From NCBI GenBank assembly GCA_000320545.1, contig ADNK01000198.1:1-35996 (forward strand): a stretch of 35,996 nt of DNA, read 5' to 3'. The stretch is from Bigelowiella natans CCMP2755. Lineage: Eukaryota > Protista > Cercozoa. The notes under the pieces are model-generated. The model did no database searches. It saw nothing but the letters and a program-made list of their open reading frames with translations, and was not told the origin of the DNA. Shown piece after piece: positions 3,576-33,987 of this stretch. The translations under genes and the position numbers were made by a program. Within the stretch, counting starts at the first letter, position 1. Each line of letters begins with the position of its first letter.

Positions 3576-3629
<54 letters not shown>

Positions 3630-4162: not shown

Positions 4163-4196
<34 letters not shown>

Positions 4197-5022: not shown

Positions 5023-5058
<36 letters not shown>

Positions 5059-5349: not shown

Positions 5350-5390
<41 letters not shown>

Positions 5391-6541: not shown

Positions 6542-6576
<35 letters not shown>

Positions 6577-7002: not shown

Positions 7003-7034
<32 letters not shown>

Positions 7035-7245
7035 TCTATATTTATTTATTTGTTTATTTATTCTGCTACTACATGATCAGAAAGAACGAATAGTACGTAT
7101 CACTGATATTATTTTATCATGTTTGAATTAATATTAATTATAATACAAGATAATGTTGTTGTGTTTGCTGTCTAAGGTACGGAGTTGATCAAACACGATA
7201 CTTCTTAGCATCTAGGTAGTAGTAGTAGTTGTAGTAGTAGTAGTG

Positions 7246-7308
<63 letters not shown>

Positions 7309-10064: not shown

Positions 10065-11300
10065 TGCAGTACTCGAAAGCACGCTTTGAGCTGATGGTTA
10101 TCTGGGTGGAGATATGGCTGGAATCATTGTGCCGCAGAATTGAAATGCACATCTAATACGCTTTGAAAGATGGACTGGCAACAAAAAAGTATCGCATCGT
10201 CATCGCATGGTCGTGTGTGTATGGATATACTGGTACGCGGCATTATTCATTGACTCATGTAAAGTCGCAGCTAAGTCCAAACACTGCTACAATGTACGAA
10301 TATACATCTAGACGAGTCTGCTGCTGTGTGATCAAACGGTTTCGATCATGCTTGCTCTGCTACGCGCCTCAACATAGCTCGCAACGCATGCTAGCATGTG
10401 TACCTTGCGCGCTATTTGTACTAGCTAGCTAGCTAGCTAGTGTTGTGTATTACAGGCATTGTATGTGTAAAACTAGATAACCTTGCGGCTTGCAATGCAG
10501 TACTAGAGTAGTCATGCGATGCATGTCTTAGCTAGCGCTAGCTAGCTAGATGCTGTGACTAACGTGCTAGGCATGCTAGCATGGCCTGCATGCTATTTCT
10601 AGATTTGCATGGTCATTTCTACTACACATATGCAGCGCATGCACTCACTAAGCAAATGATGCACGTTCTAGCGTTGTGCAGGGACCTGTAGGTCCCTACA
10701 TGGGCATGCTGTCTTCGACATGTGTATCAACCACTTCACAATTGTTGGTACGACACATGCTTGTGTATGTCGTGGTTTGTTTAGTGCATGTGTGGATGTG
10801 AAGAGAGCATGTGTGCTTTTTTAGTGCACCTGGAGTGCATGTGTACATGTGTTATTCACATACGCGTACCCATGCAGGCACCTATGTAGGTCCCTATATG
10901 TAGTAGTTATTGAGATGCGTCTTCAGAGTGCGCATGCGCACTTAACATGCTGACGACAACATGTCTAGATTTGCACAAATATATATCATGCTGTCGCTGT
11001 GCCATATGATTGTCCACATGAACTAGTTATAGATGAAGCTAGATGTGGGTTTACCCATGAAGAAGTGATGAGGCAAATAGCGACGACTGCTAGACTGGCT
11101 ATAGCTGGGCAGGCTAGCAGGCTTCATACAGGGCGCACAGAGAGCTAACTTGGATGCGCTCTTGCATGCTGTGTTTAGCGTTTACTACTTTAGTGAGTCT
11201 AGATGTGCGTGATACATATATCTAGACTTTTGATGATGCGCACAATGGTTCGACTTCGTTTATGTATGTAATCGGCTTGCGTTCACACTACTTGTTCTGA
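10065..11300. other. Convergent-gene spacer, CTAG/CATG/TGCA-rich and microsatellite-poor
   Basis: Dense gctagc, gcatgc and ctagat words; a 16-bp perfect palindrome at 10927-10942; a hairpin at 10680-10697. Confidence 0.7.
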
Positions 11301-12135: not shown

Positions 12136-12551
12136 TTCCACAATATTATGCTCGATGATTATTTTATTAAACTGAGGTACTGCCACCATTAGCACGATGA
12201 TGATGATTCATGATCATCAATACAAGAGAGTATGATAGAATACTACTACTACTACTACTACTTTTGAAGCAACAACTGATAATCTATAATGTCTTTATTA
12301 CCTTAAGCAAATCAACAGCATCCTCTGCTTCTCCTCTCCCCTCTACGTAACTTCTAACAGCATTACCATCATTTTGATGATGATGAGTAGTAGACGCAAT
12401 GATGGTTTGCTCTCCAGTGTAGTATTCCACAGCGTGAGGTAATATATCATCCTTAACAGCATAAGCAATCGCACAATCTGCGGCCAAAGCTTCACGTATC
12501 ATCTTGAAATAGTGGCGTTCAGCTTCGTCCACCTCCTTATCAAACTCCTGA

Positions 12552-12590
<39 letters not shown>

Positions 12591-12913
12591 TTACAAGGAG
12601 GGAGAATTTTAGTATTGTATTAACTATGCTGCTCTCAGTTGCTGCTTACACATCCATATCCTTTTTGTTTGTTTGTCTTTCTTTCTTTCTAAGCTTTAGC
12701 ATCTATCTTCTTGTTACAACAACATACATACATACATGCATGCATACCGGAGGTGGTGGGATATCAATGCTAGTAAACCAGTGGAAGAATGAAGGCTGCG
12801 AGGTTAAGGGGGGGTGGGGGTTCATTCATAGAAGATTGGATCGTTCATCATTATCCATCGTTACAAGTGGGGAAGGGGGGAGATAGAGGAGAATTAGGAA
12901 GGAAAGAAGAGTG

Positions 12914-12953
<40 letters not shown>

Positions 12954-14038
12954 CGAGATTGGACAAATGAAACAAACTACTTACTCTGTGTTTGTATTTG
13001 TGATCATCGTTATCATCATCATCCTCCCCTGGTCCGTCCACCATTGCGCTCCTACAAGAAGATTCGATGTGACAACACAATCATTGTAAAATTAGTAACG
13101 TGCAGGCATATAAGCAACCAATATGAAGACAAAATGAATGAAAGAGAAGATGAACAAAGTACCGATTATTATTATTATGGGATTATCATCACATCATCAT
13201 CATCATCTAGCTAGTAATTACTTTCTGGGGTCCAAGTTTTTCCATTTTATCTGGGATGGGTTGGCTGATACGCTTATCAAATCTGTGATTCATATAATTA
13301 ATTATTGTTAAAAATGGCAAGGAAGGGTCGTTGACATAACAAAAATGAAAATGGTGATATTGATACTGATGAGCATTGATAGTAATACATTACATAGGGG
13401 TTTGGAAAAGGGGGGTTCATCACATCATCATCATCATCAATAACAACATCGTTTTTATTACCTGGCTCTAATGTTGGTACTTCGGGATCCATCTCGTAGG
13501 TCTTTGACTGATATGTTATCAACATCAGTCATCAGTTTAATTATAACAACACCACTTCACTACCACCAGCATAACCATCTGCATCAGCATGTAGATAGCG
13601 AAGAAGAACATATAGAAATCATTAAAGAGCATGCTGAGAAATTATTCCTTTTCTTATGAAACTTCTTTATTCCTTGTAGTACTTCCGTATTATTGTTATT
13701 TTTATGGCTGTTATTCTTCCTCATTTCATGCTTGTCTCACTACTACTACTACTACTACTACTACTATTACTAGATGTAGTAGTAGTAGTAGTAGTAGTAG
13801 TAGTATATGAGTAGAAGTGTGAGTAGTAGGAGTATTATTGTTGGATTGGATTGGTTGTTATGTTGTTATTATTACCAACTCTGGATGGTCGAAATATGGA
13901 TTATCACTCCTGAACTTAAAGCGCAGCTAAATCATCATTATTAACAATACAATGAATGAATTAAGACGAAGTAGTAGTAACATGGAGGAGGAGGAGGAGG
14001 AGGAGGAGGAGGACAATTGTGATGATGATCATTAGAAC

Positions 14039-14074
<36 letters not shown>

Positions 14075-14349
14075 GCCGATGGTGACTACCACTACCTACC
14101 ACACTACCTACCACTCTACCTACCACCATTACTTACTACTGGCACGAAATATCACTCCTGCTTTCTCCCCCTTTCCTTTTCTTTTCCTTGATTGATTATT
14201 TTCTTTTCTCTTGTTCAAAATTACTTAGTACTTATTACCGTGAATCCCTTCTTTGGAGGTGCTAGCATTTCTACTTCGATGTTCTCCAAATATCGTAGAA
14301 TCTCCATGTCCTTATTGCTATAATTAAATCACAAACGTGGAGACGCACA

Positions 14350-14397
<48 letters not shown>

Positions 14398-16054
14398 ATT
14401 ACGATAGAATATGATCACACACGTGACAGTAATGAATAATACTGATTAGAGTGAGTAGTTTGTTTACGAAACAGCAGTAGCAGCAGCAGCAGCACGTGGT
14501 ACCATTCTCTCTCTCCCTCTCTTTCCCTCTCGTAAGTGAGTGCTCAGCAGATTGATGAGACAACGTGAAAATTAAACTAATGCTGCTAATAGTACTAAAT
14601 CCCCCCCCCCCCCCCAACCTAATTGCATGCTTCACATCCTCGTGTGCTGAAAGCGCAAGAACCCAGAAATCAGGAATCTATTGTTAAGTATAAACGACGA
14701 TCAAACAATGATAATGATGAGGACGAAAATTGTAGTACTACATTGCAATAGATGCCTGATCGTGTCTTAAATATTTCCTTGGTATCAGCATGAAGCTGGA
14801 AACACACAAGTTATTATTATTCAAACACCACCCAATAAATAAAAAATATAGGAGAGAATGTCTATCAAAGGATGCTGATGCTGATGATGATGAGATGGAA
14901 AGAATTCTCAAATCACTCTACTTGAATAACGACGAAAGATTGATAACATCAACTTATTACTTTGTTGGCATTTCATGTGTGCGTGCAAGAAAAGATACTA
15001 TAGAGTAATCAATGTTAGAAAATGAAAGAAAAGAACGATACTACTTTCCGCTGAAGCTCATATATTTCGTTGCAGAATTTGCCGTATATCTTGTCGTACT
15101 GTTGATCGGAAGAGTGCAGTTTTTCGACAAAAGGACGAACGGATGGCTCTACTAAATTCAGGGCTGTACCTCTTGGATCATTACTATTATTTTCACCACC
15201 AATATCCCCCCCCCCCCTCAATCTAGATACGAGAAGTCGAAGCCCAACTCCTTCCTCCTCCTCTCTTCTTCTTCCCCTGTACGACGACTTCTTTGGCGTC
15301 ATCCTCCTCGTCATCGTCGTGAGGAATTCAGGAGTACCACTATCACGATTATTAGTACTACGCATCTTCCTAGCCGTAGTCTGTGAAGAAGAAGAAGAAG
15401 AAGAAGAGTAGTAAATAAAGTGTTGTTGTTTCATTCAATATCACAACTTGGTTATGAATAGCTGGCTACAACTGGCTTACATGGCATAATTAACACATCT
15501 CTATTTATCATCGTTGTTACAATATACTGCTACTCCATTCATATACACAGCGAGCACATGCATCATCGCGTCGATGCAGATATGAAAAGCTGGCAGAGAG
15601 CATGCTCTCAACCAATAATTTCTTGTCGTCGTCTTTTCAAGCTCGCTCACACAGTAGCACCACCACCTTGGTTACATCGTTCTTACTGTTATCACCACTT
15701 CTACTACCATAACTACCGCCATCAATATCATCACCATCATTAATTACAACATCCTATCATAACCTAACCCTTCTTATTTTCAATAAGCACCTGCTGCTGC
15801 TGCATCATCATTGACGGCTTGTTCGTCATGAAACTTGGTAGCGCGAGAGCTGTGATGACCACCGATAAAACCAAAGTTGTAGTAACCTTATCCCTTGCAC
15901 CACGAGTGATCTTCTGTCCCACCGTTCTTCTACTACTTGTTTTCCACACCGTGTTCCGTCTTATTGATGACGATAACATCAGTGGACCATGCTCGTGATG
16001 ACGACGACGATTTTGATGATGACTAGATGCTACTGGTTGAGTAGCAGAGGCCAT
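11301..16054 (-). CDS. Nucleosome assembly protein (NAP/SET family histone chaperone) with a long N-terminal leader
   Basis: Spliced exons: EIYELQRK|LHADTKEIFKTRSGIYCN|IPDFWVLALSAHEDVKHAI|SNKDMEILRYLENIEV...GFT|LRFKFRSDNPYFDHPEL|SKTYEM...IKWK...PSFFHWF...KDDILPHAVEYYTGE. These are the IPxFW, NPYF, SFFxxF and IPHAV..TGE motifs of the NAP family. The exact 3' end is uncertain. Confidence 0.88.
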
Positions 16055-16217
16055 TTCTTAATTCTTGCTATCGCCACCACCGGATTAGCCCGGTCGTAAC
16101 TGCTCGGAGAGAGCAAGCCACTCACTGTGTTCCTTCCTCCGCCTCCTTTCTTCGGCTCTCCCCGCCTTGAAAAGAGTTGTAGTGCTCCTCCTTGTTTTCC
16201 CTCTCTGAACTACGGGA
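16055..16217. promoter_or_regulatory. Putative compact bidirectional promoter between the NAP and BET-like genes
   Basis: ~160 bp, relatively GC-rich and microsatellite-free, between divergent ATGs at 16054 (-) and 16218 (+, inferred). Confidence 0.4.
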
Positions 16218-19200
16218 ATGGATCCTATCAGGTAGTAAAAAAACAAATGATGGAGGACTGTGCGAATTATTCCAGTTTTGTCATTTTAATAAGTGAGGAG
16301 GTCAAAAGGGGATGGATCGATGATCTCCCAGTCTATTCTCGATGTGCCATTTACAGTAGCAACTGTGCGCAAATTGTGCACTGTTCAAAACCCCCTCCCC
16401 CCCGACCCTACACGCCTATATTCTGCTACATAAATCCTGCCAGAAGGCATCAGCCATTTGAATTCACAATATGGTTTAACTTGAAGAGCGGGTTGCACAT
16501 TGCGAATACAACCACACATTCCTCTTAGAGGTATCTATGCGCCAAGAAGAACATAATCTATTGAACCAAGCTAAATAATTGTTTCCAGAGTATGACGTCA
16601 CCATTCTCTGTCTCCCCCTTATTGGATATCTAGACAGAATATCTAACAAGTGGGCCCGATGCTACCCCCCTACCCTTCCGCGATTGCCGCAACAATGAGA
16701 GACAGCGCTCACAAAGGATCACCATCGTGAGTAGTCATAGGGACTATTATGAGACTATTTGTTGGTTAATATATCATTTTGGAAGCTTAGGGCTTCGGAA
16801 ATCGCAAATAGAAAGGGGGGGGGGGGAGATAGCACCTGTGCAATGTTTCAGAACTGCAACGGTGATGTCCCTATAATTCTTTGCTATTCTATTATAAACG
16901 ACTAATAAATTTACTAGTCGTAGATAAAGATTTATAATTGATACTGAAATAGTATTTTTATGATAGGGCGTTACTTAGGATTGAAGTTGTGGATGTTGTC
17001 CGGGTAGGGGAGAATTAAGATCTTAAGAGGATCATTTGAACAGCATATATTTTCAAAAATTAATAAACTTGGCAGCGTTTTCTTTCATAGTTAGTTGACT
17101 ATATCAATGAAACGGCACATCTGATGGTGTGTCGTTCTATGCTGGAGACTGGCTGAGAGACCTGCAAGGCCGATATTTTAATTTTAAATGTACAACACAA
17201 GCTCAATTTTTTCGCCGAGCCGAGAAGAAGCGACATAGAGATTTATGGGATATTTGGCACATGTACTTGCTTAATTTTGCTCTCCGGAAAATCTCCTAAT
17301 TTGCATGCGCTCTCACGGAAAAAGAGTCTTCACGTCCCATCGCCCTTTCGTCTTCTCCGTCACCAGTCTGAGAAAATCGAAAGGCATCGTTCGCAGATCT
17401 ACTTAAGAGAAAGAAAGAAAAATTTGTAGCAAGAGCTGTAAGCAAGCTTGTACCTCTAAGAAACACCGATGAGGCAGAAGTTGGGGCAGGTTACGATTGT
17501 CGGAATTACAGTACTCCTTATCATCCTTGGCGTTTATTCATTAACGGGGGGGTGTACCTGACGAAACTATCGAATCATTTATTATAATGAAAATTAATTG
17601 AGAAGAAGGTCGTTCATTTTGTGGCGTATTCTTCTTCTTCTTCTTCTTCTTGTTCTTCTTCTTTTCCTAGGTTGTAGCAACCAAGGAGCTTCAAAGCCTC
17701 CGAAAGGAGGTAGCACGCCTGAAGCGACAGAATATTTCTCAGGAGAAGACAATCGCAGCATTAAGAGCGAAACTAAAGGCTGCTACTGTTGGTGCTATAC
17801 GTACCGCTTCTATGGAAAACTTTAGCCGAAAGAAGGGAGATACTAAAGTTGCTGCTGCTCGGCGAAATAAGGCTAGGATGGTGCGTGGGGGTGGTAATGA
17901 AATCAAAGTTGCCAAGGGAAGAAGACACCAATCTATGGCACCTCCATCAAGGGTAAATGTATGATAACTTAGTAGTACAAAAATGCATGTGTGTTCGGAC
18001 CTTGCTGACTGCGTTTCTATCATCCGTACTATCACCTGCAGAAGCATGGCCATCCCAGCACTAAACGCCGTGGTCCTCCACCAAAAAGAACTGAGATGGA
18101 GCAAGAGGCTGTGTTAAAAGATGATAGGCGTAAAAGATTGAAACACCGAAAGGCTGGAAGGGGGGGGGGAGGCGCTAGCATGTACGACGCCGTTAATAAC
18201 GATGCGAAAGGAAGGATAGACGAAGAGACGAATGGGTGGGTGGGTGATAGAGACAACGGCAGCATCGTGATTCAAATGCCAAAAACTGCGGAGAGATTGG
18301 GCACTATTCTTGATGCTGTCTTTTCATCCTTCTCGTCTCCACTGTATTCATTGGGTATAAAACCGATTTTGGGAGATGATTGTACATGGCAACGCCTCCA
18401 ATGTGATGGTGCGGTGATTCTTGCGAATAAAATCGAAGAATATGCATCTCCTTCTCCTTCATCGAAGCTTCGTTTTCTACGTGCAATCGATCTGCGGGAA
18501 AATAATATCACTGACGCTGGTGCCTATCGTCTCTTTCAAGCGTTGAAGGGATGCTGTCCAAGTACTACATAGATGAGGAAGAAAAGAAAAGAAAGAGCAT
18601 TAAGGGAGTAGTAGCGGGAAAGGAGGGAGGGGAGGGGGGAATCATCATGTAGCACCACTGTTTTTCGTTGTGTTATAGTCATTGATCAGTATAGAAGTAG
18701 AGAGTCCGCTATTACTATTAGTAGTAGCAGCAGTAGTAGTTCTGAATTATCCTCGTCTCTTTCGTCGTCATTATGATACTTCATTATATTATCTATTCGT
18801 CGTCGTAATTATCATCATCATGCTTGTTCGGGATACTTCTGCTACTTTTTCCTCCTCCTTTTCTAGGGCTAGAAGAATTGCTCCTCTCTCACAACCTTAT
18901 GCGTGATGCTGGAGGCATAGAGGCAGCTAAATTTGCACTGGAACATGGCGGAGTAATAAAAATGAGTGGCTGTTCTTGAATGTTTGTGTCTGTAGTAGTT
19001 AACAACAACAACAACTACACGAATGAAAAGAACGAAAGATGGTTTCTAGTATCCTTTATGTGGTGACGATGCTAATTCTCTTCTTCTTCTTCTTCTTCTT
19101 CTTCTTCTTCTTCTTGTTCTTATACAGGTTCGATCCATTGACCTTGCCTTCAACTCCATCACAGAAAAGGGAGCAATAGAAATAGTTGCGATCCTTGAAA

Positions 19201-21663
19201 GGGGAGTTATTTCAAACCAGAAAAGCAACAACTTGAGAAGTGGGAGAGATGATGGAAATAATAATACAGAGAAGAAAAAGAAGAACAGGGCATCATCATT
19301 ATCATCGCCAACATCCTTAGGAGATAATAGGAAAAGAACGAGACAAGCAGCAGCAGCAGCAGCAGCCTCGAAGAAAACGACAATAGTCGTCGATGATAAT
19401 GATGATGACGGTTACAACGGATGCTCCTCCTCTTCCTTCTCCTCCTCCCGCCAGGAGCACCAGCTACACACATTTGATTTATCCGAGAATCACGTACAGA
19501 TGACCACCATTGCGTGCATAAAAAAGCAACTGCGCCCTATGGAAGAAGAGAGGTAGATCTAGGGAAACAAAGTTGACTTCAGATCCTGTAGTAGTTGTAG
19601 TAGTTAGTGGTAGTAGTAGTCGCTGGAAGACAGGCAGACGTGACGGAACTGACAGCAACAATTGTGAGATAGATAGATAGATAGATAACTTTCCGATGAT
19701 GCACCATGATGACGATAAGATGATGACGACGACGACGACGACCATATTTTAACAAATAATAGATAGCAGAAGCATCTGAAACAATAGCTACTATAACACT
19801 CTCACTAAACAAAATATAATTCATTGGTTGGATTATCTACGAAAGGGCGCGTGGTAGGAATAAGCTAATAAATTCTACTCAACTACGATCTGGAAAAAGG
19901 AAGCGACAACTTGCTGCCGAGTTTACGCCTCGCATTCGACGGAACTGTTCGGCTATCATAGATATTCTGTGCAACCACAAGCTTGCAAGGTGCTAGAAGA
20001 ACGTAGTATTCGTAGTAGTAATTGCTAGGTGCTAGTTTCTATGTATTCTGCAGTTAATAATGACTAGCGAAGAAATGTAATCTTCAATCTTCTCTTTCAC
20101 TTCTATTGTCCCCTTCCTCTCGTAAGGTACTTTCTCTGCGGTCAAAGAAAGGGTGTGGAGAGCCGAATAAGCAACAGCAGCCGCAGCAGCAGCAGTCACG
20201 ATGAGGCATTCCTCGAGTGTGTTGGGGGGGGGCGACAACCCATATATTTAGACATGATTAGGGATGGAGTAGAGCAGGGGAAATACTGGCATGAAACTGA
20301 CGTTTTCGCAGCATTGAGGTAAGTAAGGAGAAGATTTACAAGAAGAAGAAGAAGAAGAAGAAGAAGAAGAAGACCACCATAAACGCCCATCATTATCATC
20401 ATCACCACCACCACCACCACCACCACTATAATGAGCATGAGCATCGTCGTCATCATCATCATCATCATAATAATCTTAGGCAATGCTTCGAAGACGCACT
20501 TTCGTTTTACAAACGTGGGTCGGCAGAGCATAAAGCAGCAGGTAGACTCTCACAACTTTTGGAGAAGAACATAGAGCTACTTCCGCCAGCGATCAGGTAA
20601 TATTTTTCTTCACTCATCTTTTCATCATGGTTGTTATTATTGTTGTCACATTCTCTTCCTCATTGATTCAGGCCCCCATTTGACCCTGCTACACCCTCAA
20701 TCGTCCGAAGAATCTTGTACCTCCACAAGGGGGGGAGGCATCAACATGTATTCTCAAAGTATGATAGAGAACTAGGAGAAGATAATAATACGCAGGAAGA
20801 CAAACAAGGAAATAATAAGAGGCCTACAATGGAGGATGATAAACAGGTAGTATGCTCCGTCATCATCATCATCATCATCATTAGCAGAAAAATACTCATC
20901 AATAGAAGAATAATCAGAGGAAGAAGAACCAACCACCATATATTACCATTTGCAACTAGCTATTCATTAGATAAATAAGACTCACAATTGCCCTGGTTTC
21001 GTTTATTTTTTCTCCTTCACCTCCTCCTTTTCCTCCCCCCCTTTCTCCTCCCCCAGGTCTTCCGTCATATTTACTCTCGTTTAGTGCGGAGACCAACCTC
21101 ATCCCGTGCTGTAATAAATCATTACGGTTGGGCATTGTTGGCGTCGCTACGAATCACACGCGTCTGGCCTTTCATTAATCCGATAGATGTTGATGCTCTT
21201 AAGGTGGTGGTGGTGGTGGTGGTGGTCGTGTATTTTTTTACTTCTTTCCGGGCAACTTCATCAATAAAGAAGAAGATCAAGAAGAATGTGATCAAATGAA
21301 AATGGAAGAGGATTAGAAATGCAGCTGCCTTCCTCCTCTACCCTATTTAATTGGTGTCCTCCTCCTTCTCCTCCTTCTCATCCCTCTCATCCTTCTCCTC
21401 CTTTCAATGCTCGTACTACCATCTGATGTTTGTTACCTTTATCATCGTCGTCTTCATCATCGTAGTTGTTGTCTCGATGACGATGACAATACGTACATAT
21501 ATACATATATACTTACTACTCTGTGGCTCTACCTGTCGCGTATACATAGATTCCTCGCTATCTTGAGATCGTAAAGACGCCAATATGTCTAGAGGACGTA
21601 AGAAGAAACCTCAATGATGGCGTCTACCAAACGCTGGATAAACTCCTTCTGGATGTAGAAAGG

Positions 21664-21694
<31 letters not shown>

Positions 21695-24134
21695 GAATAA
21701 TAAAATACATTAGACACTATTGCAGTTGTTGTTCACTGAAGATCCAAGAATTATTCCTGATCATCGTATTTTTTCTTTTACGTGATTATTACTTATTTGT
21801 CACAGGTGTTTGAAAATGCGATGAGTTTTAATCACAAGAAGACGAGGTACTTCAAAGATGCTGTCGAATGTTGGCAGCATTTCTTAGACACTATCGTCAA
21901 GACTGTTCCAAGGGATATCCTCTCCGTTTTCTTCCCTTGGCGCTCCTCCCCCCCATGTATCATGCGCCGTGTGTTTCTCTACGTCAGAAGTCGCGAACTC
22001 AAATTTACGGTAGTAGTAGCACTAGTACTAGTAGTACTGGTAGTAGTAGTTATAAGGATTTACCTCCTCACATCTAGCTTCTGAATCCGATGATGCTGCA
22101 TCATAATTATTCATCATCGTGGTCACTATCATCAGCGTCTTCACCATCATAGTTCTCAGCATGATCATTATCATTTAGTCTAATTCCTTTGTTGCTGTTC
22201 TTGTAGACCTGTAGATCTCAGGTTAGGAGACTCGCACGACGCCCTTTAAAGATGGTCTTCCGCCGTAAAAATGCAATAGAGGGTATCATGAGAATAAGGA
22301 GGAGAAAGAAGAAGAAAAAGAAGGAAAAGTTCACATGGAAGAAGAACAGCATTGAAGGAGGAGGAGCAGAGACTATTATGGGGAAAAGAAGAAGCAACAA
22401 CAACAACAACAATAGCAACAAAGAGTCGAGTACAGGAGGAGATGGTGTTGACGCGATCGACGATGGCAGCAACCATCCCTTTAGGATCATTCAATCTTAT
22501 CTACTTCACAAAATAGTTCAATTTGTCACAGTCAAAAAGAACAAGAACAAGAAGAATAAGACGAAACAGAAAGCATCATCCATACAATCAGTACCTAACA
22601 CTATGGAGGCGGGGAAGGAGGAGGAAAAGCTGAGGAAAAAGAAGAATGATAATAATGATCTTGGTAGTGAAAACGATTATGGCGATAAAGTTCAGGCCAA
22701 CGGTGAGAAGAAGAATAACAGCGGCAACAGCAGCAACAACAACAACAGCAATATCATCAAAGAAATAATATCAACATCAACCACCTCCTCCTCGTCCTCC
22801 TCATCGTTTATTTCATCATCATCGGACAACACCAAGAATATGATGACGACAATGAGGGCGAGGACGAGAAATAATGTACTGCTACAAGAAGACACCACCG
22901 ATGCTTCTTCTTCGGGTAGCCATTGCGTACATCCGAGAGAAGAGGAGCTGCTTCATGGGAAGAAGTTGTTGGAAAAGAAGAAGAAGGAACAGCTGCCAAA
23001 GGAGAAGAAGGAGGAGGAGAGAGTAGCGGTGGATGTTAAAGAGGATATGAATAATAAGGAGGAGGAGGAGGAGGGGGAAGAAGAAGAGGAAGAGGAAAGG
23101 GGTCAACAGCCACAACAGCAGCAGGGAGAGACGAAGAAAGATACAACATTAGCAAATTATTTCGACGACAATGATAATGAAGATGAGAAGGAGGATCATG
23201 AGGAGATTATTCCTGTGCAGCACCGTGGTCCTGGTAGTAATAGCGGTCGTAATTATCGATATTGGTACGTGGCCTACATCAATCCTGACACGTTTGGCTG
23301 CCTTCTCATACCGTTGCTCGAATATGATAACGGTGAAGAAGAAGAAGAAGGAGGAGGAGGACAACAGCAACTTTCTACCAACGCAAGAAACGATAACGAT
23401 AACAATAACGAAAATGAGGATGATGATGATGATGATGATGATTCCCAGCAGCATCCTCATCGCCATCGATCCAATATTCATCATCGGCGTTCATATGGAC
23501 GAAGAAGAAGGGGGAGGGAATTAAGATTAGCAGCTTCTATCACCGCTGATCCTAACAATCAGCAGTCCTGTTCACATAATAATAAGTACTATATGATAAC
23601 TGCTGATTGTACCGAGTTAGATGTAGTTCCTGCTATAAGGAGAGTAGAGGAGGAGGAGGAGGAGGAGGAGGAGCCAGGAGCAAAGCGAAGTGAAAGAAGA
23701 AGCAACCTTAATGATAATGACGATAGAATCCGTCTTATAGCAGATCAATATCATTATCCTAATTTCATGAAGAAAAAGGTAGGTAGTACTGCTCATCAAT
23801 TGATCAAGAGTAAAATTGTATTGAAATTATATCAGTAAAGAAGCAAATACTTCTAGCTATGAATAATAGTATTTATGGAACTGCTACTACTACTACTACT
23901 ACTACTACTACCTCCACTGCTACTCCTACTATTATCACCATACCAAGAATCGAATCGTTGTAGTTAGAATGAATGGTTAAGCCTCCTCCTCATCTTCTCA
24001 TTTACATAATCCTTCTCCTGCTGCTACTGCTCCTCCTCCTCAAACCCCTCTCTCCCCTCCCTCCTTCCTCGGCATTAATTCTAATGATCTCTATCTGCTG
24101 TGTTTTACTGGTGGTTCTCTTCTATCGCAACAAC

Positions 24135-24166
<32 letters not shown>

Positions 24167-25808
24167 CAAATATAAGACGAAGAAGGAGCATAACGCTTTC
24201 TTCACGTCATCACCAAGATCTTCATTCCATCGTGTTTTCGCTGGTGGTTCATCTCCTACTACACCTCTACGGTCCTCCTCCTCGTCGTGGGTGCTGCTCG
24301 ACAAAGAAGACTGCGACAAGGAGGAGGAGGAGGACGACGACGACGACGATAACGATAACGACAATAAACAACAACAACAACAACAGAAAAAGAAGAAGAA
24401 AAAGAGGAAGGGGGCAGAGGAGGAGGATGAGAAGGACGAAGAACCGGAGGAGGACGACGAGGAGGAGGAGGAGGATATTGAGGGAAAAGACAACAATGAA
24501 GTGTCAGCAGCAGCCTCGGTTGTACTACTCACTCATGATAAGAGGAGCACACATATAGTATATATACATGTATATTTATATAGATCTGTGGCTGTATTTT
24601 ACATAACCTCTATCTATCTATCTATCTATCACAATGTATTAGCAGGAGGGAAAAGCCGGCTCTCCTTCTTCTTCTTCTTCTTCTTCTTCCTCCATCATCA
24701 CTACAGAACGTCGAACCTACACTACACGTCGTTTGAGCAGCACGAAAAGAGGAAGAAAAGAAAAGGGAAAGAGTAGAACAAGGATAAATGCTCATGCAGG
24801 CCCCGTAGTAGTAAAGCCCATATTACGTTCAGTTCTCGAGACAACAACTCTCAATCGGAGCTTTTGGACAAAACGGAAGAAGACTGACATAATGATGATG
24901 CAGCACCAAGTGGTAATACTACTATTAATGTCAAATGAAGAATATATGCATTCATGCTACCATTTTCACTCACTACTACTACTACTACTAATACTACTAC
25001 TACTAATACTAGGGCTCTGGCACTGCGACATGGATTTGCCCGATTTGTGAGCTGAGCAACTCATACGATGATGACGACGATGATGCTACGGGGAGTAGTA
25101 GTGGTGGTGTAGTGTTCTGCATGAGATGCAGTGCTAGGTGCCCTGTTAATGTAAGGAATACGCTTGAGAAGGAAAAAAAGAAGAGGAAAAACAGGAAGAA
25201 CAAGATGCTACTAAAGGTGATAATCAAGAAGGAAAATGATGATGAATCAGAGGCGACTATAGGAAGAATAGGAGGAGGAGGAGGAGGCTCAATAGTAGCT
25301 GTAGCAGTACTAATACGTCTGATGGTGATAATAACCTTGATACGACTCCTTTTGCCCATTATCTCCCTCATCTCTCTCTTAATCAACAGACGACAAAACA
25401 GAATGCTGATGATGGTCATGGCCATGGCGCAGTCAATCGTCCCGACGGAAGAGAAGCGAATCTATTCGAAAAAGAACAAGATGATGACGAGAAGAAACTA
25501 CATCATAGACGACGACGAAGTGTTTGTGAGGTGGAGGATGTGAAGCAGAATATAGAAGAAGAAGAAGAAGAAGAAGAAGAAGAAGACGATGAGAGTGCCA
25601 CAGATTACTGTAACGAAGATACAAAACGGATTATGAGAAAGCGCAAAGGAAGGCCAGCGACAAATAACAAGAACAACAACAAAAAGAACAACAAGAAGAG
25701 AATCAACCACCGGCAAGAGCAGCATCAAAACCTACAAAGACCTCCCAGCACGGTGGCAGCAGGAAACGATTTTTCATCATCGGTTGGTTATTGTCACGAA
25801 AGAGGAGG

Positions 25809-25840
<32 letters not shown>

Positions 25841-25845
25841 CCATT

Positions 25846-25876
<31 letters not shown>

Positions 25877-26154
25877 CCATCATGTTCATCTTCTTCTTCA
25901 TCTTGATGATCTATATTTGTAATATATTGTTGATTTGTTGTTAATAGGATTTCTGCGAGCAGCAGCAGCAGCTACAGGATGGAGACCATATTCGTGTGAC
26001 GTGGGATGACGAGGGGACCTTTGACTGTATCCTGCATGCCCGAGAAAAAAGAGTAGGAGGAGGAGGAGGAGGAGGAGGAGGAGGACCACCGAACAATGAC
26101 GAGGAGAAGGAGAAAGGAGACTGCTGGTACGTACGTACATACTTCTAGTGGATA

Positions 26155-26190
<36 letters not shown>

Positions 26191-26245
26191 AGGTAGTAGT
26201 AGAAAAGGAGGAGGAGGAGGAGGAGGAATTAGTACAGAAGTTTCC

Positions 26246-26280
<35 letters not shown>

Positions 26281-27378
26281 CTCGTGATGATAAATACGGG
26301 TAAATGATCATGTTGATCTATCGTGTCGTATCGTATGATGTCATATATCTATCTATCTATCCTCCTCCTCCTCCTCCATATTATTATTATTTGGAGTAGT
26401 AATCCAAATAATACCTGTCCTCCTTGCCATCATTGTATCATCATCATCAGCAGCAGCAGCAACAACAACATGGTTGCTTGGTTGCTTCTTTTTTGTCTTC
26501 AAGTGAAGAGTCGCCTTGTCCTCAATATTAGTAGTTCCGACTACTACTACTTACTACTGCTACCACCATACATACATACATTCATACATTCATTCATTCA
26601 TCGATCCATCCATCCATCTTCCAGGTGCGTGACTTCACTGGATGGACGGTTTAAGGAGGTAATTCCTTTCGATACAGAGGAGGACAGCTGGGAGCTTATA
26701 GCAGCAGCAGCATCAGCAGCAGCAACAGCAGCTCAAAGAAGAAGAAGAAGAAAAAGAAGAAGAAGAGGAGGAGGGGGAAAGGCCACCGATAAGAAGAAAA
26801 AGAGAATTGCTAATAACATTGATCAAAGAGGAGGAAGAGGTGTCCCGAAGGAGAAGACCACGACGAATCGCAAGCAAAATAGCCAAGAATCATCGTCATC
26901 TTCTTCTTCCTCCAAGGAGGGAGGGGGAAGAGATAACAGCAGCCAAATCCAAGTGGTGGCCAGGAGGAGGCAGCAAGAGAAAAATAGTACAGGTAGCAGT
27001 GTAAAGACAACGAAACAAGCTATGGAGGAGGAGGAGAATGAGAAAACCAATGAGAATAACAATATTAGGAGTAGTAGTAGGAGAACCAACCCCCCCTCCT
27101 CTATCCCGCTGCTACCTCCACCACCACCGATTACATTTGAAGACAAGCAACAATTATTCCAAGAAATACATCAACTTCCCACTGGAGCCCTTGACGACGT
27201 AATTATAATTATAACAATATATATAATAGTAATAACTATTACTTCAAAGCTTTATGAAGGTTAGAGAAAAGAAAAAAGAAGAAGAAGAAGAAGAAGAAGA
27301 AGAAGAAGAGACTGATTAAAGTAGCAGTAATAGACCTTATTTTTGTAATCTATTTGTCCATTACAACAACAACACAGC

Positions 27379-27415
<37 letters not shown>

Positions 27416-27434
27416 CTAGACATGCTCTCCTGGG

Positions 27435-27467
<33 letters not shown>

Positions 27468-27807
27468 TCACCTAAGATATAACATAAACCCCCCTCAAGA
27501 CATTCTATTCTCTTCCCTCTTTACGTTGAAACTACTACTACTACTACTACTGATGATGATGATGATGATGATGATGCTCATTTCCATTCTGAATGAAAGA
27601 AGAAGAGAGATAATACAGCTAGATACGGGATGATAACATCACCAACTTGTGAGCAGAAAGATGATGATGACGATGATGATGATGATGATGAGGAGGAGGA
27701 GGAGGAGGAGGAGGAGGAATCCATATCAGTTTAATTCCAATCTCGTTGTGTCTAAGTAGGAAAGGGAGGGGTGGCACATGGACAATATCCCTTCTTCCTC
27801 CTTCTTC

Positions 27808-27850
<43 letters not shown>

Positions 27851-28287
27851 TTTTTCTCCTCCTCCTCCTACCTCCCTCCCCCCTTACTGACTTAATCTGG
27901 CTCTGTTTGTTCTCTTTCTCTTTCTCTTTGTCTTCTAGGTGGTAAAGGTAATCCAAAAGTTCCATCCTCACAGTTTGATGCAGGACAAGGGAGATGTATC
28001 CTCAAAGACACCTAACGGCGAAGTAGAGATCGATATTGGACTGTTGAGCAATCAGTGCTTGTGGGAGCTACAGCGCTTGATTGCCGCTGTGCGTCTTGAT
28101 AAACTAGAACCGAAGGTGCTACTACTAGTTGCACATATTGTGTGTGCGCGTGTGCAGTCCCTCCTCCATCATCATCATCATGGCTATTAGTTTTTGTGGT
28201 TGTTTGGTTGAGTGTGTGCTGCTCCTACTGCTGCTGTTGCTGGTGGTGGTGCTGCTGCTGCTGCAGATGGAAAGAGGCGATTGTAAG

Positions 28288-28325
<38 letters not shown>

Positions 28326-28929
28326 GTAGAACAATCCTGGATGATAAACAAAGTAAAGGAGGAGGACAAACAGTCATAAAAGACTACATAATCCTACCCG
28401 CTCATTGAAATGCGTGCACATTTATCAATATCATTATTATTATTAATATCATTATTGTTTATTACATTGTTGTTTTTGTTGTTGTCTTTGTTGTGTTCTT
28501 CTTCCACAAGGTTGGTATGCATCTTACCGTATGGTTTTCAAAACCTCCCAAGTGGTTCGGTGGGTGTATAAAGCAGGTACTTGCTTCTTCTTTTCATTTC
28601 GCAAAAAAAGGATGCCAACGTTTAGCGGCAGAAATATAATTTTGCTCAGCTAATGATATTGTCATGGCTCTCACCTGGAGAACCTATAGAAGTAGTTGAG
28701 AATTACCAAAGATATTCGGTGCGATGTATAATATCGTGTTGCTACCCTACGGAATGATTACTATATTCATTATGTAATAGAGAAAAGTGCTCTTTTGACA
28801 GCAGATTGTCTGCTGATGTAGCCCTAGCTTCAACTGTGCTCTATAAGAAAGAATATACTACCAAAAGGTATCCAAGATATCGGAAGAGAGCTGGAAATTG
28901 ACGATTGCTTATTATGACGAAGAAGAGGA

Positions 28930-28969
<40 letters not shown>

Positions 28970-29303
28970 GCATATGGTGAGAACAGGCAGTGTTGTGTCG
29001 GGGTGTGTGAATATTTTATACCGAAATTTGTAGGATTTTTTGCTCATTTGGCCATGAACACCATTTGAACAACATCATCTAGTCTTTTCTGCAGCATGGT
29101 GCCAACGTAGTAACATCAACAATAATCATTGCCATTAATGACAGGACAGGTTCTTAAAAAAGAGGAATTCTTTTAAATGAAAAAAATTGAAGATTCTCTA
29201 AAATAAAAGATTTGATGCATTTTATCATATATCTTAGGTCACAGTCTACCCAGATCCTGATGGGCACATCATTTTAAAAAGACAAGCACCCAAGCAGCTC
29301 TAA
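16218..29303 (+). CDS. Large multidomain BET-like chromatin reader: LRR, 2 bromodomains, RanBP2-type ZnF, Tudor-like, ET, Tudor-like
   Basis: Phase-consistent exon chain including 16634-16726, 16833-16861, 16967-17003, 17091-17126, 17202-17262, 17397-17551, 17671-17952, 18042-18561, 18867-18952, 19128-19552, 19858-19989, 20127-20318, 20480-20596, 21057-21203, 21550-21663, 21806-22009, 22207-23778, 25948-26126, 26625-27198, 27939-28115, 28511-28576, 28868-28930 and 29238-29303 (TAA). The start codon and the LRR-to-bromodomain junction are inferred. Confidence 0.7.
18460..19530 (+). other. RI-like (ribonuclease inhibitor/RanGAP-type) leucine-rich repeats
   Basis: LRAIDLRENNITDAGA, LEELLLSHNLMRDAGG, VRSIDLAFNSITEKGA and LHTFDLSENHV match LxxLxLxxNxIxxxG. 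Confidence 0.85.
19940..20570 (+). other. Bromodomain 1 (non-canonical)
   Basis: CSAIIDILCNHKLAR|YFL...QPIYLDMIRDGVEQGKYWHETDVFAALR|QCFEDALSFYKRGSAEHKAAGRLSQLLE. Confidence 0.75.
21100..21905 (+). other. Bromodomain 2 (canonical, WPF shelf and conserved Asn)
   Basis: VWPFINPIDVDALK|IPRYLEIVKTPICLEDVRRNLNDGVYQTLDKLLLDVER|VFENAMSFNHKKTRYFKDA. Confidence 0.9.
25031..25144 (+). other. RanBP2/NZF-type zinc finger with an acidic insertion
   Basis: WICPICELSN-(loop)-CMRCSARCP fits W-x-C-x2-C-x3-N...C-x2-C. Confidence 0.65.
25970..26700 (+). other. Tudor-like domain 1 (split by intron 26127-26624)
   Basis: LQDGDHIRVTWDDEGTFDCILH...DCW|CVTSLDGRFKEVIPFDTEEDSWELI resembles PDS5-type Tudor domains (G.rI.VwW...DG..E.....WELI). 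Confidence 0.55.
27130..28090 (+). other. ET (extra-terminal) domain
   Basis: ITFEDKQQLFQEIHQLPTGALDD|VVKVIQK...GEVEIDIGLLSNQCLWELQRLI. Confidence 0.9.
28511..29280 (+). other. Tudor-like domain 2 (C-terminal)
   Basis: PK|VGMHLTVWFSKPPKWFGGCIKQ|VSKISEESWKLTIAYYDEEEE|VTVYPDPDGHIILK. Confidence 0.55.
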
Positions 29304-30709
29304 AAGTAGCAAGTTCAGCAGTGCTGAAAATTGAAAGAGACTCAGATGATATTTTTAATACATATCAAAACGTGCTATGATACGTCTCGCTAGATGGTTC
29401 ATTGTCATGAACATTTGGAACGTAATAAAATAAAAACACTGCATCTATGTTGCTCTAGCCGACGGCTTGCAACATGTGCGATGCGATGTACTGGCGGTTA
29501 ATAATAATGCCAATGGTGATTTGCTGAATCCTAGAGTTATAAATTCCACTAAACATCACATCGATAATGAATGTCTAGCTTATTTGTGCCGATGTGCCAT
29601 ACGCACAGCAACTCGGCTACGCTTGCTAGCTTGTGATCTGCCACATTGAACATACTAAAGAATCTGGCTTCGATTTCGCGGTCGACGCAGTGCTCCCAGC
29701 ATGCAGCTGTAGTGTGACAAGGGCCATGACTTGCTACATGTTCGATTGCATTATTTGACTTGCCAAGTATGTTATTGCACGTCGTCGCTGCCGAACATTG
29801 CACAAAATAAGTTTGAATAAGGCTCATTAGCTCGCCATAGATTAATGTTGCACACAGGCGCGGTGCACATCTAGATCGACATCATGAGCTAAGCAATCGA
29901 CTAAACATCGCTAGATCAGCTCTCATGCTAGCATGCTGCGCTGCAGTTTAGCTAGCTAGATGCTCATGTTCTGGATCTGCTAGATTTGCATGCCCTGTGC
30001 ACGTGTGTTGCTTCCTATGCAGCTTCCTCTAGTCCTCCCACTGGCACGCACAGCATTTCCAGACTTCGGACATGAATGAAGCGATCGAAAGTGAGCAAAA
30101 ACTAAATCTTTCATCAGAGCAGCAATGGACGTTCGGCGTCAACACTATTTGCACTTGCTGTGGATGTAGCGGATTCATTGCAATGAGTTGCAGCAGCTCT
30201 GAAGCGCACACAGGAAAGAGCACCGCCATCCAATTCAACAAATCGTGTGCAGTAATCTATGAATATTTAATTCGTGCGTGTTCTTATGACTCTGCTCACG
30301 ACGGATGAATCGTTTTACTTCTCCCTACTTAGCGTGTATTATCATCATGATAGAGCACTGTCCCTCCACTGTGCTAGCGGCTGTATCATATCTATAAATG
30401 TCGAGCATCATGCTATGAACATACCCATACCGACGGGCGGATACTCACCAAAATGGGGGACAAGGAAGGCAACTTTATCAGTTGATGTGCTATTATTTAC
30501 TGATCTGTATGTTTCTGCGGCCTTAGATGTTCCTCTTCCAAATGAGCGAATCAAGTAATATTCCAGATGCCTATTATCATTGTCGCATCTACGGCAACCA
30601 CTACTTCCACTTGACTACCACTACTACTGCTGCTACTATGTTGTTCCTATCATCGTCACGTATTGCAGCTGCTGACTCAATAGTTGATGGAACTACGGTT
30701 GGACTGCGT
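29304..30709. other. Second convergent-gene spacer with the same composition
   Basis: Shares exact 12-16-mers with 10065-11300. Confidence 0.7.
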
Positions 30710-30744
30710 TCAGCATGCACAACCCCTGTAAAATATATAAAAGA

Positions 30745-30780
<36 letters not shown>

Positions 30781-30952
30781 CCAAAGAAAGAGAGAAAGAC
30801 GGTTGAATGTATTAGACAAAGTACACTGCTAATGCGAAGAAGTTGGCCGGAACACGAACCACTTTGTATATATACAAATCGATCAGAAACCTCGTCTGTA
30901 GTCTTGCATTCATTTGCATTTTGAAAACTCGAAAATAAGAACGATGAGAGGA

Positions 30953-30997
<45 letters not shown>

Positions 30998-32006
30998 TGT
31001 TGAGATAATACTTATTATTATTTGTACTACTTTCCGCCTCCTCCTGTGTTGCATCTGCACGTATCAGTTGTCGATGGGGCTAAGCGCCGAACCGACTCAT
31101 CAATCTCTAATCCACGGGAAGTCTAAGAAACATCACTCATCAATCTCTAATCCTCGGGAAGTCTAAGAAACATTACACGTCTTACGTCGTAAGAACAATA
31201 AAGGAGAAGTACCATTACGTTTAGGCATACAGATATAAGTACAAATCTAGCCACTTCAGTCCAAACTAAAACTACTACCACTACCACTACCACTACCACT
31301 ACCACTACCTTGAGAATCTCCTCCACAAGTGACGCAAATGCTTCATCCACATTAGCACCTACAATCATGCAAAGAGGGACGAAATTAAGAGTAGAAAGAG
31401 GATGGGAATTAGTGAGAATTCTTATTAGTGTGAAAATAATGCCATAGTTATTCCAAGGTCATTATCTTGATCATCACACTACTACTAACTACCTGTGTTG
31501 GCGGAGGTCTCGAAGTAAAGCGAATGTTGGTTTTGAGCCAACTCTTTTCCTTCTTCAGTGCTAACCTATGGAGAAGGCCGGTGACGAGAATCATCAAGAT
31601 TGGAAGGCTTTCAATAAACATTTCGAGCTGACTAATTAAGGTAAGGCGGGAGGGGGGTTGAGGGGGGAAGAGATTGTTCGAGACCCTTTTGGGACGGACC
31701 GCATTTTATATAAACGTGGACGATCATCTCACGCACACGCACACGCACACAAAGTAAGTATGAGGGTCTTGACGCATGTAAAAGGGTGTTAGTGATACTT
31801 GTTGCAAGATATTGAAAAGAAGAGATTGAGCAGTGTACTGTTGGACGCATTGGATAGTTCTCTTGTACAACTAGAGATGCTGCTGCTGGTATTACTACTA
31901 CTGCTACTACTACTTTTCGGTCCAAATCCGCCTTGTTTCCTACAATGGCGAAAGCCACTCCATCTACAAACTTGCAAGCCTCTTCTATCCTGCAAGTGCA
32001 GAAGTA

Positions 32007-32039
<33 letters not shown>

Positions 32040-33063
32040 TAATTAATAACGATGGTGGCTTTCCGACAATCCAGTTTCGATAAATAATAATACGTGGTTT
32101 TAAGTGCCATGTTGGTCATCATGGCCATTAAATTGAACAACAACAGCAGAAACGAAAACAACAACAACAATAAGAACAACGTATAGAAGAAGGTTTTTGC
32201 ATCTTTATGTCGTTCGAAGCTCCATCTACAGACAACAACATCCTCCCTTGAATGGTAGCAGAAATCATCCTACCATTTAGTGACTCGATCAAATGAGGAA
32301 GGAACCGTGACATCGTACACAACCTGATGGTTATAATCTTAATAATAATGAAGACGGTCATGAAAAATGGGCGTGCATATTGCTGTTTCAGGTGGTATTG
32401 CTCGAATGCTGACCATGATGCCTCGAGCCCCCCGGTAGTAACTCGATGTTATCGTACGGAACCGTTCTTGCCCCGCTGAATAATATGATTTGGATTTTAT
32501 TTGTGAATCTACTACTTGGTATTGTTGAGAATACTGGTGTAAACAACTACCATGCGTCTACTACTACCACCACTACTACTTTAACACCACTACTACTACT
32601 ACCACTACCCGTGTCCCATATCATAAGCTTTAGATTTCTCCCTTTGACTTTCACCGCTTTTGCTTTGAAGTCAACGCCTATCGAGTCAAGGAATAAGGAA
32701 AATATGGTTATAGTATTTGGAAGCGAAGTTGCGAAAAATGCATTGATGATAACATGATTGGTAGCTGTAACACAATAATCCCCCTTTACCTATTGTGGAC
32801 ACGAAGGAAGTGCTGAATACATCATCTACGTAACGCGAAAGCAGAGAAGTTTTCTGGAAAATATACGAAAGGGAGTCAGAACAATGGTAGGTGTTATTTT
32901 TACTTAGAAAGTCGCAAGCTTCTTTTTCCCCCCCTCGTCACCATTCATTCACGACAAATCCTCTATACATTTTAGTTCGTTTGACCCCTACGCCGCTGTC
33001 TCCTATGAGTACGATCTTAGCCAGATATGTAGGGTCTTCTTCATCTTGGACAGGGTCCTCCAT
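30710..33063 (-). CDS. Rab small GTPase (Rab1/Rab8/Rab18-like)
   Basis: KIVLIGDSGVG|KTSLL...STIG|VDFK...IWDT|AGQERFRTITSSYYRGA...VVYDVT...VGNKADL...YFETSA...NVDEAF. The final exon 30725-30710 gives the C-terminus GGGGKGCAC* (CxC prenylation motif). The gene may extend 5' of ATG 33063. Confidence 0.93.
31095..31173. repeat. Tandem 40-bp duplication spanning a Rab 3' splice site
   Basis: actcatcaatctctaatcc(a/t)cgggaagtctaagaaacat occurs at 31095 and 31135 with one mismatch. Confidence 0.95.
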
Positions 33064-33987
33064 TACAGCATCTATCCCCCTCCCTACTCGTCGTTGCACT
33101 TCGTCTCTTCCTTTATTCTTCTCGGCAATAAATGAGGCTTGAAACTGGGCTTTCAACTTGTTGTCAATGATAGGCAAAAAGTAATCGGAAATACTTCTAA
33201 GAATTAGAACGAATCGAACTCACTCAGAGACAAAAACTCAGAGGCAACGTTCAGTCTCCTTGTTTCCATCCGCAACCGAGACTACTACCACTACGAGACA
33301 ACGGATGTTCTTCGTTACTTGAGACATGGGGAAATAGCTTGTCGCAGGGTGAAAATCTGGATCTTTTCTTTCACTATTCTTCTCCGACCCTGGGCCGGTC
33401 TTCGGAAGCCTGATCATCGCTTCAGTCCTGTTGATGCTACGATCGTACATCGGTGGTGCATCGCTTGATAGGTAAATTATGATAATCGATGAATGCTGAA
33501 CTTTCATCTTCTAAGAAAGCACATGCATCTACAAGACAAACTTCGTTCGTCGAATGCGTTTGCCTGGTCGCAACAATGCATTGTGCACGTGGCGACGAAG
33601 GACAAGCTAGTGCGGATGGACAAAGATGCGATGTTCAATTTTTTCAACAACAATGTTCTAAATGTTCACTATCTTACTCAATTATTATTCCGTTAATTCT
33701 CCAGCTCTAGAAGAGAAATTTGCATTGTTGCATGTTTTCCCGCCCATTAGTATATAACAGCTTGCAAGGAAAACAGCCACCAGTTTGGCGCTCACATAGC
33801 TAGATGCAAGCATGTGGTCACTTATTTGTTAGCAAAAGTAAATGGTCGGAGTTTTAGCGCAAAAAATGTCATCAAATTTTTTTTTATTCCAATCCTTTCA
33901 TTTTGTGCCATACATTTAAGATCTTTTTTTCGGGCTTCACAGGAGAAAAACTTTTTCCGGTATTTAAAAAGAACATTAGATATATAC

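Follow-up and report, generated by a model that had tools for sequence, protein, structure and literature searches.

Contig ADNK01000198.1 of Bigelowiella natans CCMP2755, analysed over positions 1 to 35,996 (the window), contains a gene on the plus strand whose modelled product joins leucine-rich repeats (LRRs), an atypical bromodomain (BD1), a canonical bromodomain (BD2), a zinc finger and an ET domain. The gene is real, spliced and expressed. Its product is most probably (a probability of about 0.6) a BET-like scaffold, nuclear and non-catalytic. BD2 would dock on acetyl-lysine, the ET domain would recruit partners, and the LRR block, BD1 and the finger would act as interaction modules. An earlier note on this DNA had proposed a multivalent reader of acetyl-lysine, methyl marks and ubiquitin, Ran or RNA. 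From that proposal a single BET-like gene with LRRs, two bromodomains, a C4 finger and an ET domain remains, while acetyl reading by BD1, a ubiquitin-binding motif in the finger and profile support for the Tudor domains do not; the protein is less multivalent than was proposed.

Exon chain and transcripts

The exon model was built from three-frame translations and transcript contigs, in DNA that is eukaryotic in character and in a window where simple repeats are abundant. Its coding span is 17469..29303 on the plus strand, divided into 23 exons. All 22 introns are GT-AG with a mean length of 250 nt, and the frame of 2,110 residues has its sole stop at 29301-29303, so the single phase-consistent exon chain of the earlier note is borne out. 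The coding parts of exons 1 to 5 are 17469-17489, 17671-17952, 18042-18561, 18867-18952 and 19128-19552, followed by exons 6 to 10 at 19846-19989, 20127-20318, 20480-20596, 20672-20846 and 21057-21203. Exons 11 to 14 are located at 21550-21663, 21806-22009, 22207-23778 and 24177-24521, the last with a provisional donor, and exons 15 to 18 at 24646-24912 (provisional acceptor), 25013-25216, 25390-25782 and 25948-26126 (predicted donor). Exons 19 to 23 are 26625-27198, 27939-28115, 28511-28576, 28868-28930 and 29238-29303.

The stretch or part of it is present in 20 of 24 listed sequencing runs from seven studies, and six of the 24 were examined in detail. None of the listed runs is recorded as RNA; the expression call relies on the GT-AG joints in the contigs and on the recorded RNA-seq run X22, where 208 reads (about 6% of the run sampled) fall mostly on the plus strand within the gene. 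Observed joints or exact lengths support 19 of the 22 introns. Ten GT-AG joints of the model are directly present in contigs from runs X1, X5 and X6, and four of them recur in X3 and X18. Two contigs extend from 17672 into exon 13, X6 record 10 and X1 record 2, and their offset to the model is constant at 8/8 and 5/5 anchors respectively, so that exons 2-13 have a fixed total length. Each carries the LRRs and both bromodomains in one spliced contig, and this removes the possibility that these two halves are transcribed separately. Overall, contig-to-model offsets are constant over 17672-23323, 24706-25543 and 26784-29303. The predicted joint of intron 13 is matched in X18 record 1, where 92 letters lie upstream of 24176 and the depth in bin 23722-23932 corresponds to about 56 letters. 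The ET domain and the last four exons are together on a single contig (X18 record 4).

Several observations weigh against a single transcript. The joints of introns 14 and 18, both in masked repeats, were not seen in the contigs, no contig spans either 24307-24706 or 26053-26629, and there are further contig breaks at repeats within exons 13 and 17. Contig depth increases 3' of about 24176 in X6, X3 and X5, which is compatible with 3' bias and also with a separate downstream transcript. Moreover, two introns are represented by unspliced contigs, intron 13 in X3 at a depth of 26 and intron 22 at a depth of about 8.6. The model could thus have joined two or more adjacent units of transcription, with LRR-BD-BD in one gene and the finger and the ET domain in another gene downstream. 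This reading gains from the missing contigs, from the depth downstream, from the intron-13 contig showing unspliced forms that would stop at 23838 without ET, and from a database protein (P0001, below) that starts only at 26629. It is nevertheless very improbable, because each contig break coincides with a masked simple repeat, in-frame GT-AG joints exist at both unseen introns (several possible pairs for each) and the link from LRR to bromodomain is itself on a single contig. Furthermore, no internal poly(A) end was present among the loose ends listed and no site was reported where many molecules start or end. We infer a single full-length mRNA across both unseen joints.

The lower-depth contigs within introns 13 and 22 cover 23935-24121 and 28978-29265. 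They may be mere unspliced precursor. Retention of intron 13, which would stop the frame at 23838, may also give an LRR-BD-BD form without ET.

The first exon (17290..17489, plus strand) comprises the 5' untranslated region (UTR) and the likely start. Contigs from X1, X5 and X6 have 149, 146 and 104 letters upstream of 17672, and because these equal the depth of bin 17061-17547 in all three runs (149.3, 146.2 and 103.8), the first exon is placed in that bin. Donor 17489, the provisional choice of the model, gives an in-frame ATG at 17469, and donor 17437 gives none. The earlier note had the gene span 16218..29303. Its end point is correct, but its start is about 1.1-1.25 kb too far to the left: the ATG at 16218 yields no long frame with any of the four direct donor/acceptor joints to exon 2 that were tried. 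The contigs covering 15791-16395 form records of their own, X22 reads from bin 15600-16086 are on the opposite strand, and the region around 16218 is the 5' end of a divergent gene. At the other end, the 3' UTR (29304..29447, plus strand) is delimited by four raw X22 reads with A-tails behind 29447, the only poly(A) site among the loose ends listed.

The downstream part of the model is also found as a database protein, P0001 (JGI, 313 residues, singleton cluster). It starts at 26629, is identical to the last 313 residues of the model at 310 of 313 positions (three substitutions), confirms introns 19-22 and joins the ET domain and the last four exons in one protein. By this near identity P0001 is taken as another allele or strain and not as an orthologue.

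Domains of the protein

BD2 (21102..21904, plus strand) is a canonical bromodomain. Exon 11 alone matches Pfam Bromodomain PF00439 with 33.7 bits (cut-off 21.7, E 3.6e-08) and exon 12 matches with E 0.044; the best PDB matches of exon 11 are PBRM1 and TAF1, not BET. The domain retains the WPF shelf (691-693), Tyr707 and the anchoring Asn750, residues named as the acetyl-lysine pocket (PMC8303718, PMC10093686). With the gatekeeper defined as six residues after the Asn, a spacing taken from PfBDP1 (PMC10093686), this position is Tyr756. Tyr gatekeepers are known in BRD9 and GCN5 (PMC12985534). BD2 would accordingly be expected to bind acetyl-lysine, and because the gatekeeper is Tyr its predicted pocket is narrower than in human BET domains.

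BD1 (19904..20596, plus strand) is atypical, and its classification as a bromodomain comes from its similarity to BD2. The BD1-BD2 alignment has a z of 6.8, its score is reached by 1 of 2000 shuffles, and BD1 is the top-scoring window of the model. Exon 8 of BD1 matches exon 12 of BD2 with E 0.001. Exon 7 has seven weak PDB matches, of which four, with E 0.5-1.5, are bromodomains of kinetoplastid type. No Pfam match was obtained when the three exons of BD1 were scanned singly, and exon 8 alone had no relevant PDB match. Tyr567 replaces the anchoring Asn, Phe521 replaces the Tyr of the ZA loop, Glu573 is at the gatekeeper position, the WPF shelf is absent and a loop carries an insert of about 20 residues. 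The two bromodomains of the earlier note are thus both present, but because BD1 has Tyr567 at the position of Asn750 in BD2, only one acetyl reader, BD2, is expected. Almost all acetyl-lysine readers have this Asn, and the MLL bromodomain, which lacks it, assists its neighbouring PHD (PMC8303718).

The segment after BD2 (21905..22290, plus strand), delimited by the hydrophobicity profile and basic runs, is hydrophobic and basic and is followed by a Lys/Arg run; it has no Pfam match. The run is a possible nuclear localisation signal. The short hydrophobic stretch at 21905-22010 is reminiscent of the start of an F-box but has no Pfam match at E up to 10. The model has five Lys/Arg runs and no hydrophobic leader in its first 120 residues, which together point to a nuclear location, and the long charged linkers would fit a flexible nuclear protein.

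The ET domain (27127..28085, plus strand) is split by intron 19. Pfam BET scores 47.5 bits on P0001 (cut-off 24.5, E 2e-12, profile positions 1-63 of 64) and 27.3 bits on exon 20 alone; exon 20 had no relevant PDB match. An ET domain C-terminal to the bromodomains, as the earlier note had it, is therefore confirmed. The Pfam scan of 21 exon stretches found no catalytic domain, and the NCBIfam scan gave noise only.

Four RI-like LRR motifs are found at 18477..19546 (plus strand) by motif scan. The motifs start at residues 247, 276 and 304 (spacing 29 and 28) and, beyond a low-complexity insert, at 416. A profile made from 17 unrelated repeats recovered repeats 1 and 3 with 9.3 and 6.6 bits (at most -0.2 in 200 shuffles) and did not recover repeats 2 and 4. 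Pfam LRR_6 stays below its cut-off (E 0.0018-0.031), and the best PDB match is the NLRP1 LRR with E 0.011. The repeated consensus that characterises RI-like LRRs, some 28 residues long and including a helical segment, is present in the block. The earlier note had called the repeats RI/RanGAP-type: the RI-like part agrees with the four motifs. The block is short where RanGAP has a long LRR horseshoe, and none of the 12 PDB matches of exon 3, the sole exon searched, is a RanGAP chain. Upstream, a likely coiled coil (17686..17787, plus strand) has weak matches to several coiled-coil Pfam families, the best with E 0.0013 and all below the cut-off.

A C4 zinc ribbon of RanBP2/NZF-like pattern is located at 25031..25141 (plus strand). 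It has Trp1544, Cys1546, Cys1549, Asn1553, Cys1573 and Cys1576, that is, the Trp, the four Cys and the Asn between Cys 2 and 3 of RanBP2-type fingers, with an acidic spacer of 19 residues from the Asn to the third Cys. The profiles are below cut-off, with 25-25.9 bits against 27 for Vps36-NZF-N (PF16988, E 6.4e-06) and 13.5-14 against 27 for RanBP (PF00641). In the PDB, rubredoxins (E 0.004) rank above Vps36 (E 0.21) and Nup153 (E 0.4). Glu1550-Leu1551 stands where ubiquitin-binding NZF fingers have Thr-Phe/Tyr, the motif that defines them, and fingers of RanBP2 type that lack TF can serve simply to bind proteins (PMC11372445). Of the RanBP2/NZF finger in the earlier note, the residue pattern thus holds, but neither a profile above cut-off nor the ubiquitin-binding motif was found.

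Two Tudor domains flanking ET had also been claimed. Neither has profile support, which was one of the grounds on which the earlier note itself would have given up the claim. The upstream segment (T1; 25975..26700, plus strand) is small and beta-rich with a Gly-run insert. It was scanned as separate exon pieces, its internal joint (intron 18) being unseen. These pieces had no Pfam or PDB Tudor match and a best Atlas value of 0.77, below lead level; PDB matches of exon 18 were discarded as Gly-linker artefacts or as immunoglobulin-like strands and other unrelated chains. A model of the first exon of T1 forms three strands (pLDDT 57.6). This partial model had no Foldseek or VIA match, which counts as no evidence against a Tudor fold. 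By eye, T1 is without the third aromatic position.

The C-terminal segment (T2; 28511..29285, plus strand) is beta-rich, spans three exons and is present in spliced form in P0001. At E up to 10 the spliced form matched neither a Tudor family in Pfam nor any PDB sequence, and exon 21 had no PDB match. The spacing of Trp2054, Phe2062, Tyr2083 and Asp2085 resembles by eye that of a Tudor barrel with a three-ring methyl-lysine cage. The odds that T2 is a Tudor-type barrel are about even, and lower for methyl-lysine binding, which would rest on these residues. A three-ring cage occurs in the Tudor of plant PDS5C (bioRxiv 10.1101/2022.05.28.493846).

Another region, absent from the earlier note, consists of beta-rich segments broken by acidic inserts (23245..24310, plus strand). 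Its single-sequence model has four strands (pLDDT 41.5). No homologue was found in Pfam, Atlas, representative-protein and viral searches, and the model of exon 13 was too poor for a fold search. The region is a possible extra domain.

The full multivalent reader of the earlier note, with both bromodomains reading acetyl-lysine, two Tudors reading methyl marks and a finger binding ubiquitin, Ran or RNA, is highly doubtful. All modules are within one frame, the aromatic and acidic residues of T2 have a cage-like spacing, three strands form in T1 and the finger weakly matches those of Nup153 and Vps36. On the other hand, BD1 has no anchoring Asn and has Glu at the gatekeeper, the finger has no TF motif and an acidic spacer that does not favour RNA binding, the spliced T2 lacks a Pfam Tudor or PDB match, and T1 lacks an aromatic position. 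A signal-gated BET protein would be another extension: a sensor of RI-like LRRs and pseudo-bromodomain would control docking, BD2 and a Tudor-type tail would read acetyl and methyl marks jointly, and 23245-24310 would be a new module. This is quite unlikely; if true, the protein would be a BET reader of both acetyl and methyl marks that takes its input through LRRs, and the literature searched describes no such build.

In the preferred scaffold reading, BD2 is predicted to dock on acetyl-lysine of histones, and the ET domain would bind short motifs and so recruit remodellers or transcription factors. ET domains of human and trypanosome proteins bind short motifs with two hydrophobic residues (bioRxiv 10.64898/2026.03.22.713544). 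Together with its Asn-less neighbour BD1, the LRR block would make up a unit for protein binding, the finger might provide a further protein-binding surface and T2 may add methyl-lysine reading. These interaction roles of LRR, BD1 and finger are predicted from sequence.

Relatives of the protein and neighbouring genes

The searches for homologues add further points against the scaffold reading. No orthologue was found, only the second allele, and about 31% of the model positions are low-entropy, which weakens every homology search. A protein of 2,110 residues falls outside the length window of the protein searches. Against proteins of 304-2000 residues, exon 3 gave none of 1409 candidates. Exon 12 gave none of six, with no bromodomain relatives as sequences, and for exon 20 one of four candidates was P0001. 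The end of exon 13 had no match among 1.84 billion representatives.

Three loci of 118 candidates in a metagenome scan match one LRR motif only. In the viral scans one of 25 candidates was a chance match via an acidic run, and a further scan gave none of 602. Locus L003 has a long RI-type LRR reading frame at 1115-2692 with one in-frame stop under table 11, and its genetic code may be a different one.

A lineage-specific BET paralogue undergoing drift could have this appearance, with only BD2 and ET at work and with LRR, BD1, finger and beta-rich segments (not Tudors) decaying or accidental. Every module besides BD2 and ET is below Pfam cut-offs or without a match, several modules are interrupted by simple-repeat inserts, the similarity of T1 and T2 is at chance level (382 of 2000 shuffles), and the failure to find an orthologue adds to this. 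However, the frame is open across 22 introns and 2,110 codons, the LRR, the Cys set and the bromodomains retain their core positions, and the second allele is intact with its three substitutions in 313 residues. The searched collections may also simply not include this lineage. Drift is thus unlikely, and the scaffold remains the preferred explanation.

The divergent neighbour at 12287-16395 on the minus strand has a match to NAP (nucleosome assembly protein; Pfam E 3.8e-06, below cut-off), and roughly 0.9 kb separate its 5' end from exon 1 of the BET-like gene. The leader that its own first exon encodes (ATG 16054) is basic and contains a hydrophobic stretch, possibly a bipartite targeting signal. 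Should the host, as one might guess, be an alga with a nucleomorph, the neighbour would be a candidate for an imported histone chaperone. PMC4822330 describes imported nucleomorph histones and calls the imported chromatin proteins unknown; NAP is not covered in the available text of PMC3542566.

On the other side, at about 30600-33220 on the minus strand, there is a spliced gene for a Rab-type small GTPase, two exons of which match Pfam Ras with E 9e-07 and 0.00096. Two near-identical copies of about 38 bases are seen by eye head to tail within this region, at 31087-31174. The plus strand at 8268-8423 weakly matches in Pfam, short of the cut-off (E 0.0011), the RagD-binding domain of leucine-tRNA ligase and is probably one exon of a tiny-exon gene at about 3100-9000. 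By eye, CTAG, CATG and TGCA words abound in two intergenic stretches, at about 10250-11300 and at 29380-30060, which differ in this from the introns with their many microsatellites and are possibly a dispersed repeat family.

Comparison with known systems

Members of the BET family (BRD2/3/4/T, yeast Bdf1/2, Tetrahymena IBD1 and BrEt-1 to 3, T. cruzi BDF1/BDF3) share with this gene tandem bromodomains followed by ET and no catalytic domain found. At least one bromodomain, BD2, is canonical and has the WPF shelf. In contrast to the family, about 460 residues with the coiled coil and the LRRs precede BD1, which starts near residue 465, about 1,190 residues with the zinc ribbon separate BD2 from ET, and a beta-rich tail follows ET. 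The gatekeeper of BD2 is Tyr where BET domains have a small hydrophobic residue (PMC10093686). The family is defined by tandem N-terminal bromodomains and ET, and the Tetrahymena BET proteins vary, with one bromodomain and one or two ET domains (PMC12361904). The bromodomains here are not N-terminal and, compared with the animal and fungal definition, BD1 is not canonical (Tyr567, no WPF). Because the strict definition of two canonical N-terminal bromodomains fails, the protein is classed as BET-like. The view in the earlier note that BET proteins are bromodomains plus ET only is roughly what the literature describes, but protist BET proteins vary and new reader architectures often arise in single lineages (PMC12361904, bioRxiv 10.1101/2021.11.30.470311).

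Repeats before a bromodomain are known from Plasmodium PfBDP1 and Tetrahymena BrAn-1/BroW-1, where N-terminal ankyrin or WD40 repeats are a proposed interaction surface (PMC10093686, PMC12361904). The gene described here differs in having LRRs, two bromodomains and ET. Human MLL1 and T. cruzi BDF8 have Asn-less pseudo-bromodomains that, like BD1, are thought to be helpers or scaffolds (PMC8303718, bioRxiv 10.64898/2026.03.22.713544), but BD1 is the first of a BET-type tandem and stands beside an LRR block. The finger has the Trp, four Cys and Asn in common with Vps36 NZF-N, Nup153 and the HOIP ZnF, and departs from RanBP2/NZF fingers in the missing TF, the 19-residue spacer from Asn to Cys3 and its scores below all Pfam cut-offs. 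TONSL/TONSOKU is a chromatin-binding scaffold that also carries an LRR block. To our knowledge it has no bromodomain or ET and reads histones through other repeats. Dictyostelium has an ankyrin-bromodomain-ET-BTB protein, which the literature search did not find.

No LRR-bromodomain-ET protein was found in the literature searched, which included few subscription journals and did not include the orthogroup tables of bioRxiv 10.1101/2021.11.30.470311. That survey of reader architectures across 172 eukaryotes describes lineage-specific bursts of innovation in reader domains, yet in 92% of reader genes a single kind of reader domain is present. Tudor-MSH6 fusions are patchy across SAR lineages (bioRxiv 10.1101/2024.10.15.618488). 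The weight of a protein found in one species only is limited, as lineage-specific reader shuffling is common and the roles are predicted. BET proteins are nevertheless among the most conserved chromatin readers, and what varies among the described protist versions is chiefly how many bromodomains and ET domains they have. A protein with transcript support that combines LRR, pseudo-bromodomain, bromodomain, finger and ET broadens this known design space, with domains that are small and separable.

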